Assembly (NCBI RefSeq): GCF_011045215.1 | Contig: NZ_CP049201.1 | DNA length: 64,000 bases | Strand: one strand, 5' to 3' | Source of the DNA: Escherichia coli | GTDB lineage: Bacteria; Pseudomonadota; Gammaproteobacteria; Enterobacterales; Enterobacteriaceae | Shown here: piece by piece, positions 49,513-49,987 of the stretch | How the letters are laid out: each line of letters begins with the position of its first letter | Position numbering within the stretch: position 1 is the first letter of the stretch | Made by a program: the position numbers and the translations under genes | The notes under the pieces: generated by a model | Database searches by the model: none | What the model saw: the letters and a program-made list of their open reading frames with translations, nothing else | What the model was told of the DNA's origin: nothing

Positions 49513-49514
49513 GA

Positions 49515-49883
49515 TTATTGCGCAGGCACCGTTTTATCCGTCTGCGCAATTAACGCATGTAAAAAAGGCTGTGCGTTCTCATCGCTCTTACCGGGCATCT
49601 TCACAATATACGGCTTCCCGGTAATCGATGACGACGAAGCAACCTTATCAATAAACTGCTCGGCAGTGTCAATGCGGTTTCGGGTGTTGCCCAGCTTCAG
49701 ACGCAGATGAGAAACCGCTTCATCGCAGCTATGTTCATCACCGTTGCGCACAAATATCAAATCCTTTTTCTGTGCTAATCCCTCCAGCATGGCGTTGATG
49801 CGGGCTTCTTCATGGGCAGTTAACTTCGCGTAAGCGGGGAGTGTCATTAGTAGTGTAATGACCAGACAAATGATTTTCTTCAT
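49515..49883 (-). CDS. yfeK: Small secreted protein (signal peptide)
   Basis: 122-aa ORF with N-terminal signal [19 protein letters not shown]; position between cysM and pdxK; symbol from remembered synteny and less certain. Confidence 0.5.
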
Positions 49884-49987
49884 TGAATTACCTTATCCTT
49901 GTTTTGTAATAGCCGATTTGACTGCCAGAATCAGGTAAAGTTTCGGTTGGAATACGATGAGGATCATCGGCAAGGAGAAAAAATTAA

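Follow-up and report, generated by a model that had tools for sequence, protein, structure and literature searches.

The single-gene yfeK–cysM junction of an Escherichia coli strain is the majority and most probably ancestral arrangement, and yfeS of K-12 a probable gain

The closest described counterpart of the locus studied here is the yfeK–yfeS unit of Escherichia coli K-12. In MG1655, two genes lie between pdxK and cysM: yfeK (b2419, 124 aa) and yfeS (b2420, 244 aa, with a WGR domain). Both belong to the sigma-E regulon, yfeK being induced 2.9-fold and yfeS 4.8-fold (PMC2731931), and the sigma-E promoters measured in PMC3326320 include that of yfeK. No mention of yfeK occurs in the main text of Rhodius et al. 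2006 (PMC1312014). The protein family, described as the RefSeq 'YfeK family protein', NCBIfam NF007646 (PRK10318.1-3) and Pfam DUF5329, is without an assigned biochemical function or a solved structure. A further point of comparison is provided by regions of genome plasticity, the core-gene insertion spots of Enterobacteriaceae; the yfeK/cysM junction likewise holds varied cargo, and the strain analyzed here differs from that pattern in carrying the empty state.

We analyzed a 64-kb stretch of the E. coli contig NZ_CP049201.1, referred to below as the window. Its yfeK occupies the same chromosomal position and orientation as in K-12, but the window lacks both yfeS and the REP pair that accompanies it in K-12. 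As a result, the stop codons of yfeK and cysM are separated by 2 nt in the window versus 955 nt in K-12. The genes cysU, cysW and cysA lie upstream of this locus and crr and ptsI downstream. The features of the locus are as follows.

48601..49512, plus strand: cysM, cysteine synthase B, 303 aa (Pfam PALP, 249 bits; RefSeq annotation of matching genomes)
49513..49514: spacer GA, 2 nt, between the convergent stop codons of cysM and yfeK (from the sequence)
49515..49883, minus strand: yfeK, 122 aa, DUF5329 protein with an N-terminal signal peptide by inspection (Pfam, NCBIfam)
49517..49525 and 49542..49550: perfect 9-bp inverted repeat, ATTGCGCAG / CTGCGCAAT, with a 16-nt loop (repeat search)
49884..49987: divergent yfeK–pdxK intergenic region, 104 nt (from the sequence)
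49917..49942, minus strand: sigma-E-type motif (G)AAACTT-N16-TCAAA, about 34 nt upstream of the yfeK start codon
49988..50839, plus strand: pdxK, pyridoxal/pyridoxine/pyridoxamine kinase, 283 aa (Pfam Phos_pyr_kin and PfkB)

The gene cysM is the final member of the cysPUWAM cluster and ends with TAA at 49510-49512. Its 303-aa form begins at GTG; the mechanically called open reading frame is longer, starting further upstream with the ATG at 48523. At the amino acid level, CysM is 98.7% and PdxK 99.6% identical to the K-12 protein. The initial annotation had described a single 122-aa gene lying 2 nt from the cysM stop, with no second gene before pdxK, and had placed yfeK and yfeS at this position in K-12. 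The first two statements were confirmed from the list of open reading frames and the sequence, since the interval 49513-49987 holds no credible open reading frame besides yfeK. The placement in K-12 proved right when checked against the MG1655 annotation, and K-12 does not share the single-gene layout. Two further open reading frames, 49184..49624 (plus strand) and 49964..50293 (minus strand), were rejected as genes, being shadows of cysM and pdxK that are either out of frame or antisense. An Rfam scan of 48400-51000 returned nothing in the yfeK region and a chance mir-23 match elsewhere. A REP element is present at 48546-48578 in the cysA–cysM intergenic region (Rfam partial naRNA4, 34 bits, below the gathering score).

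The window YfeK agrees in full with the described family, with no difference. It matched DUF5329 over residues 24-115 (109 bits against a cutoff of 27) and the NF007646 equivalog model end to end (positions 1-122 of 122; 277 bits against a cutoff of 171), the model having the same length of 122 positions as the protein. Identity to K-12 YfeK is 96% at the amino acid level. The gene is divergent from pdxK and convergent with cysM, an order also found in K-12 and in the E. coli, Escherichia sp., Pseudocitrobacter, Citrobacter and Superficieibacter loci. By inspection rather than by a predictor, the N-terminus resembles a Sec/SPase I signal peptide with cleavage after 19 residues, before KL, and the alignment shows that a hydrophobic N-terminus is retained among YfeK homologues. 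Judging from its sequence, YfeK is probably a small exported protein. The AlphaFold2 model is confident, with a mean pLDDT of 88.5. A phmmer search of the PDB found no sequence relatives, and Foldseek returned no PDB match with E < 1, with TM-scores of at most 0.4; we therefore propose no function for YfeK on the basis of its fold.

The alignment of the window with the K-12 locus consists of two colinear BLAST blocks that abut at 49517/49518, immediately to the right of the GA spacer, and this is where K-12 has an additional 958 bp (NC_000913.3 2537708-2538665). The K-12-only segment contains yfeS, its ribosome-binding site and a REP pair on the cysM side, and it is bounded by an 8-bp direct repeat, GGATTAAT. 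Its composition differs from that of its surroundings: the segment has a GC content of 40.5% versus 52.3% in the flanks, and the GC3 of yfeS is 36.7% versus 61.8% for cysM and 64.5% for cysA, neighboring genes lying at 60-65%. Between yfeK and cysM, the window has no open reading frame with a WGR domain, and a tblastn search of the whole window with K-12 YfeS detected no remnant of the gene (best E = 0.59).

The two alleles also differ at the 3' end of yfeK (GCGCAATAA versus GCGGAAGGAAATTAA). The protein of the empty-site allele in the window ends in TDKTVPAQ, whereas that of K-12 ends in TDKTVPAEGN. Since the residues after TDKT show no conservation in an alignment of 17 homologues, the difference between the tails is probably neutral. 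Excision of the K-12 segment would not give exactly the window sequence, and insertion into the window sequence would not give exactly that of K-12. Neither a simple target-site duplication nor a simple repeat-mediated deletion yields the observed pair of alleles exactly. As no clean insertion separates the two alleles, the junction alone does not reveal the polarity of the change.

Sequence identity to K-12 steps at the yfeS site, from 96.9% on the cys side (44540-49517) to 99.2% on the pdxK/pts side (49518-61308), and cysM contains 100-nt patches with only 90-95% identity to K-12. This pattern indicates a recombination boundary at the yfeS site somewhere in the history of the window and K-12 lineages, a boundary that gives no lineage for the exchange. 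The window strain is not a close relative of K-12, the identity being 96.9-98.1% over most of the 64 kb.

To count the two arrangements, we used a 151-bp probe across the cysM/yfeK junction of the window and scored the junction as contiguous or otherwise in 5,426 complete E. coli genomes. The contiguous junction was present in 4,038 of the 5,426, and RefSeq annotates the window junction in the same way, with cysM adjoining yfeK. Genomes with the empty site include ST131, ST1193, O157:H7 and O111 strains, which we take to represent at least phylogroups B2, E and B1. The yfeS coding sequence was found in 1,387 genomes; laboratory derivatives of K-12 or B make up many of these, so that the corresponding 25% overstates its natural frequency. 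The 958-bp K-12 segment was present at a coverage of at least 80% in 1,381 genomes, and the empty-site and yfeS classes sum to nearly all genomes. Genomes without yfeS matched only the REP portion of the 958-bp segment, indicating that yfeS has not moved elsewhere in them. Two yfeS alleles were distinguished: a K-12 type (at least 99% identical; 1,223 genomes) and a B/BL21 type (about 97%; 165 genomes). From strain names, genome sizes and near-identical flank scores, we presume that the yfeS-positive genomes form one clade, mainly within phylogroup A. The single-gene layout is already annotated in about 4,000 complete RefSeq genomes and is the ordinary E. coli arrangement. Rare variants with insertion sequences also occur: an IS2 copy lies in the yfeK–pdxK intergenic region of the empty-site strain E. 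coli 201609 (L025 4989-6215), and IS1 lies inside yfeS of the yfeS-positive strains LR-03 and 254D-1 (H130/H131).

For outgroups, one genome per species was scanned with YfeK and the genes were mapped by tblastn; the scan returned 22 loci, E. fergusonii and Salmonella not being recovered by it. The gap between yfeK and cysM was 2 nt in the GTDB representative of E. coli and in Pseudocitrobacter faecalis, 1 nt in Enterobacteriaceae UBA5654, 32 nt in Superficieibacter sp., 31 nt in Citrobacter amalonaticus and 57 nt in Entomohabitans, all without yfeS. In Escherichia sp. E1V33, also without yfeS, the two genes overlap by 12 nt. This cryptic-clade strain has a third variant of the yfeS-less junction (L003 1417-1428), in which cysM ends with TGA, not TAA.

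Among the scanned loci outside E. coli, yfeS was found only in a metagenome-assembled genome of an uncultured Pseudocitrobacter sp. (L005 5376-6316). In this locus, the cassette occupies the position that it has in K-12, and the junction sequences, the REP pair and the tail of yfeK agree as well. Its nucleotide identity to K-12 is 95.9% for yfeS, reaching 97-99% in central sliding windows, whereas the flanking genes are 80.5% (yfeK) and 89.6% (cysM) identical. Since Pseudocitrobacter holds both alleles (empty in L004, with yfeS in L005), the yfeS polymorphism is either old or transferred. The greater similarity of the cassette than of the flanking core genes across genera, combined with its foreign composition, points to horizontal acquisition of the yfeS cassette between genera. 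Searches with tblastn gave only weak partial Listeria matches among phages. Plasmid matches comprised a homologue with 70% identity on one E. coli plasmid and full-length Fusobacterium homologues with about 40%. No donor was identified among the phages and plasmids searched. The distribution of YfeS homologues fits that of a mobile accessory gene. The plasmid copy is an unannotated open reading frame (NZ_CP098226.1 3366-4067; 50 kb, E. coli from a dog) whose product shares 70% identity with YfeS along 96% of its length.

Given the population counts, the outgroups, the composition of the cassette, its identity across genera, the lack of a remnant and the distance of the window from K-12, we infer the direction of the event as follows. 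The window very probably carries the empty-site allele as the majority and ancestral state, with the K-12 state as the gain. It would then be the K-12/B lineage, not the window strain, that changed, by taking up a 958-bp low-GC cassette with yfeS and the REP pair. Entry of the cassette between yfeK and cysM would have rewritten the end of yfeK (from VPAQ to VPAEGN) and placed yfeS downstream of the yfeK promoter.

The initial annotation had favored the opposite direction, a strain-specific deletion, with a different local arrangement as the fallback. Deletion would mean that yfeS was present in the ancestor of the strain's lineage, or of E. coli, and was then lost; it could have been removed by recombination between the two copies of GGATTAAT, the junction acquiring a few more changes afterwards. 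The 8-bp repeat that bounds the K-12 cassette is a possible substrate for such an event, and the presence of yfeS at the identical site in two genera is readable as ancient presence. However, recombination between the repeats predicts TTTAAGGATTAATTTCCTTCCGCAGG, and the window instead has TTTAAGATTATTGCGCAGG, which differs by the lack of 7 nt and by a substitution; the expected scar is thus not found. The empty junction is also shared by 4,038 genomes and is nearly identical in P. faecalis, which would require a single deletion to be very old or the same deletion to have occurred many times. Moreover, six outgroup taxa lack yfeS, the GC content of the cassette is foreign, yfeS is more similar across Escherichia and Pseudocitrobacter than the core genes that flank it, and no remnant persists in the window. 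With only 96.9-98.1% identity to K-12, the window gives no indication of a recent private loss from a K-12-like ancestor. We consider deletion improbable, and a strain-specific one unsupported. What stands of the earlier reading is the difference from K-12; its deletion explanation does not, and its fallback is correct in a trivial sense.

The step in identity to K-12 at the site, from 96.9% on the left to 99.2% on the right, would also suit a secondary allelic replacement, in which ancestors of the strain had yfeS and recombination with an empty-site donor (gene conversion) removed the segment. Import of a yfeS-bearing segment into the K-12 lineage explains the boundary equally well, however, and the strains nearest to the window at this locus (H1 and H71; 99.6-100% identity) are also free of yfeS. 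Elsewhere, identity between the window and K-12 is no more than about 97-98%. Such a replacement is quite improbable in our view. Assembly collapse or misread sequence would likewise produce a single-gene layout, but thousands of complete genomes, independent of one another, reproduce the junction with 98-100% identity, and RefSeq annotates it. No point in favor of an artefact was found, and we regard one as extremely unlikely. If the empty site is ancestral, K-12 is not a neutral reference here: yfeS would be a lineage-restricted, horizontally acquired accessory gene, so that the absence of a gene that K-12 has should not be taken for a deletion.

The yfeK–pdxK region of the window is nearly identical to that of K-12, whose yfeK–yfeS is a sigma-E regulon unit, and this likeness includes the sigma-E-type motif. 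The region shows almost no variation across Escherichia, and six Escherichia sequences, that of E. albertii among them, share the motif unchanged. As AAACTT-N16-TCAAA, it fits the sigma-E consensus (GGAACTT-N16-TCAAA-like). The pattern AACTT-N15-17-TCAAA has its sole match in the 64-kb window here, but 34 of 100 shuffled sequences hold at least one match, so that the occurrence is not beyond chance. In the window strain, sigma-E would drive yfeK alone, from the 104-nt divergent region common to yfeK and pdxK. The gene would then form a monocistronic unit encoding a small exported DUF5329 protein. The sigma-E unit known as yfeK–yfeS in K-12 would thus consist of yfeK only in about three quarters of sequenced E. 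coli.

The perfect 9-bp inverted repeat at the junction overlaps the yfeK stop codon, and in K-12 its left arm is disrupted. The junction hairpin folds with -20.8 and -15.7 kcal/mol on the two strands, no better than shuffled sequences (z-scores of -0.14 and -0.54). A scan of 49300-50100 for sigma-70 promoters and intrinsic terminators returned one site each, no more than in shuffled sequences and neither at the junction; the junction hairpin was not called as a terminator. The repeat may provide the cysM and yfeK transcripts, which converge here, with a common 3'-end hairpin.

In different Enterobacteriaceae, the convergent yfeK/cysM junction holds different cargo genes. Besides yfeS, three cargoes were found, each with its own YfeK C-terminal tail.

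E. albertii (L009 5331-7149), strand opposite to yfeK: 1.8 kb with two open reading frames; one without a Pfam match, the other with only a sub-threshold DKNYY hit (18.7 bits, cutoff 25)
Citrobacter sedlakii (L010 5364-9182), yfeK orientation: 3.8 kb with two open reading frames of about 630-650 aa; the first without a Pfam match, the second with weak TPR matches
Superficieibacter electus (L011 5376-5891), yfeK orientation: about 0.5 kb encoding a 140-aa SnoaL-like/DUF4440 protein

No integrase, transposase or tRNA was associated with the yfeK/cysM site. Such varied occupancy hints at a modest insertion hotspot. It is conceivable, if doubtful, that the junction is a cross-genus insertion hotspot at which unrelated cargo is swapped in without a visible recombinase, replacing the last, unconserved codons of yfeK. 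Were this so, cargo oriented like yfeK, namely yfeS and the genes found in C. sedlakii and S. electus, would lie downstream of a sigma-E promoter and thereby join the envelope-stress regulon. The window would in that case show the landing site in its empty state, and the target could include the 9-bp inverted repeat that overlaps the yfeK stop. Reading the locus as a defense island is unsupported, as YfeK, YfeS and the E. albertii cargo open reading frames had no match among the PADLOC defense models.

Two other differences from K-12 were observed in the window. Between eutA and eutB, 8.2 kb (20194-28437) have no K-12 counterpart and stand in place of the cargo of the K-12 cryptic prophage CPZ-55 (K-12 2560063-2565365). 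The open reading frames of this cargo include one HNH_3 endonuclease and otherwise have no Pfam match, and the adjacent integrase gene (28439..29644, minus strand) is common to the window and K-12, where it is intZ. The other difference follows yfeR (61309-62573), where the window lacks the yfeN-xapA-xapB-xapR block that K-12 carries between lysV and yfeR. In this region, the window has a FlxA-like open reading frame (61298..61639, minus strand) and tRNAs Lys-Val-Val-Val (61915-62314, minus strand), followed by gltX.
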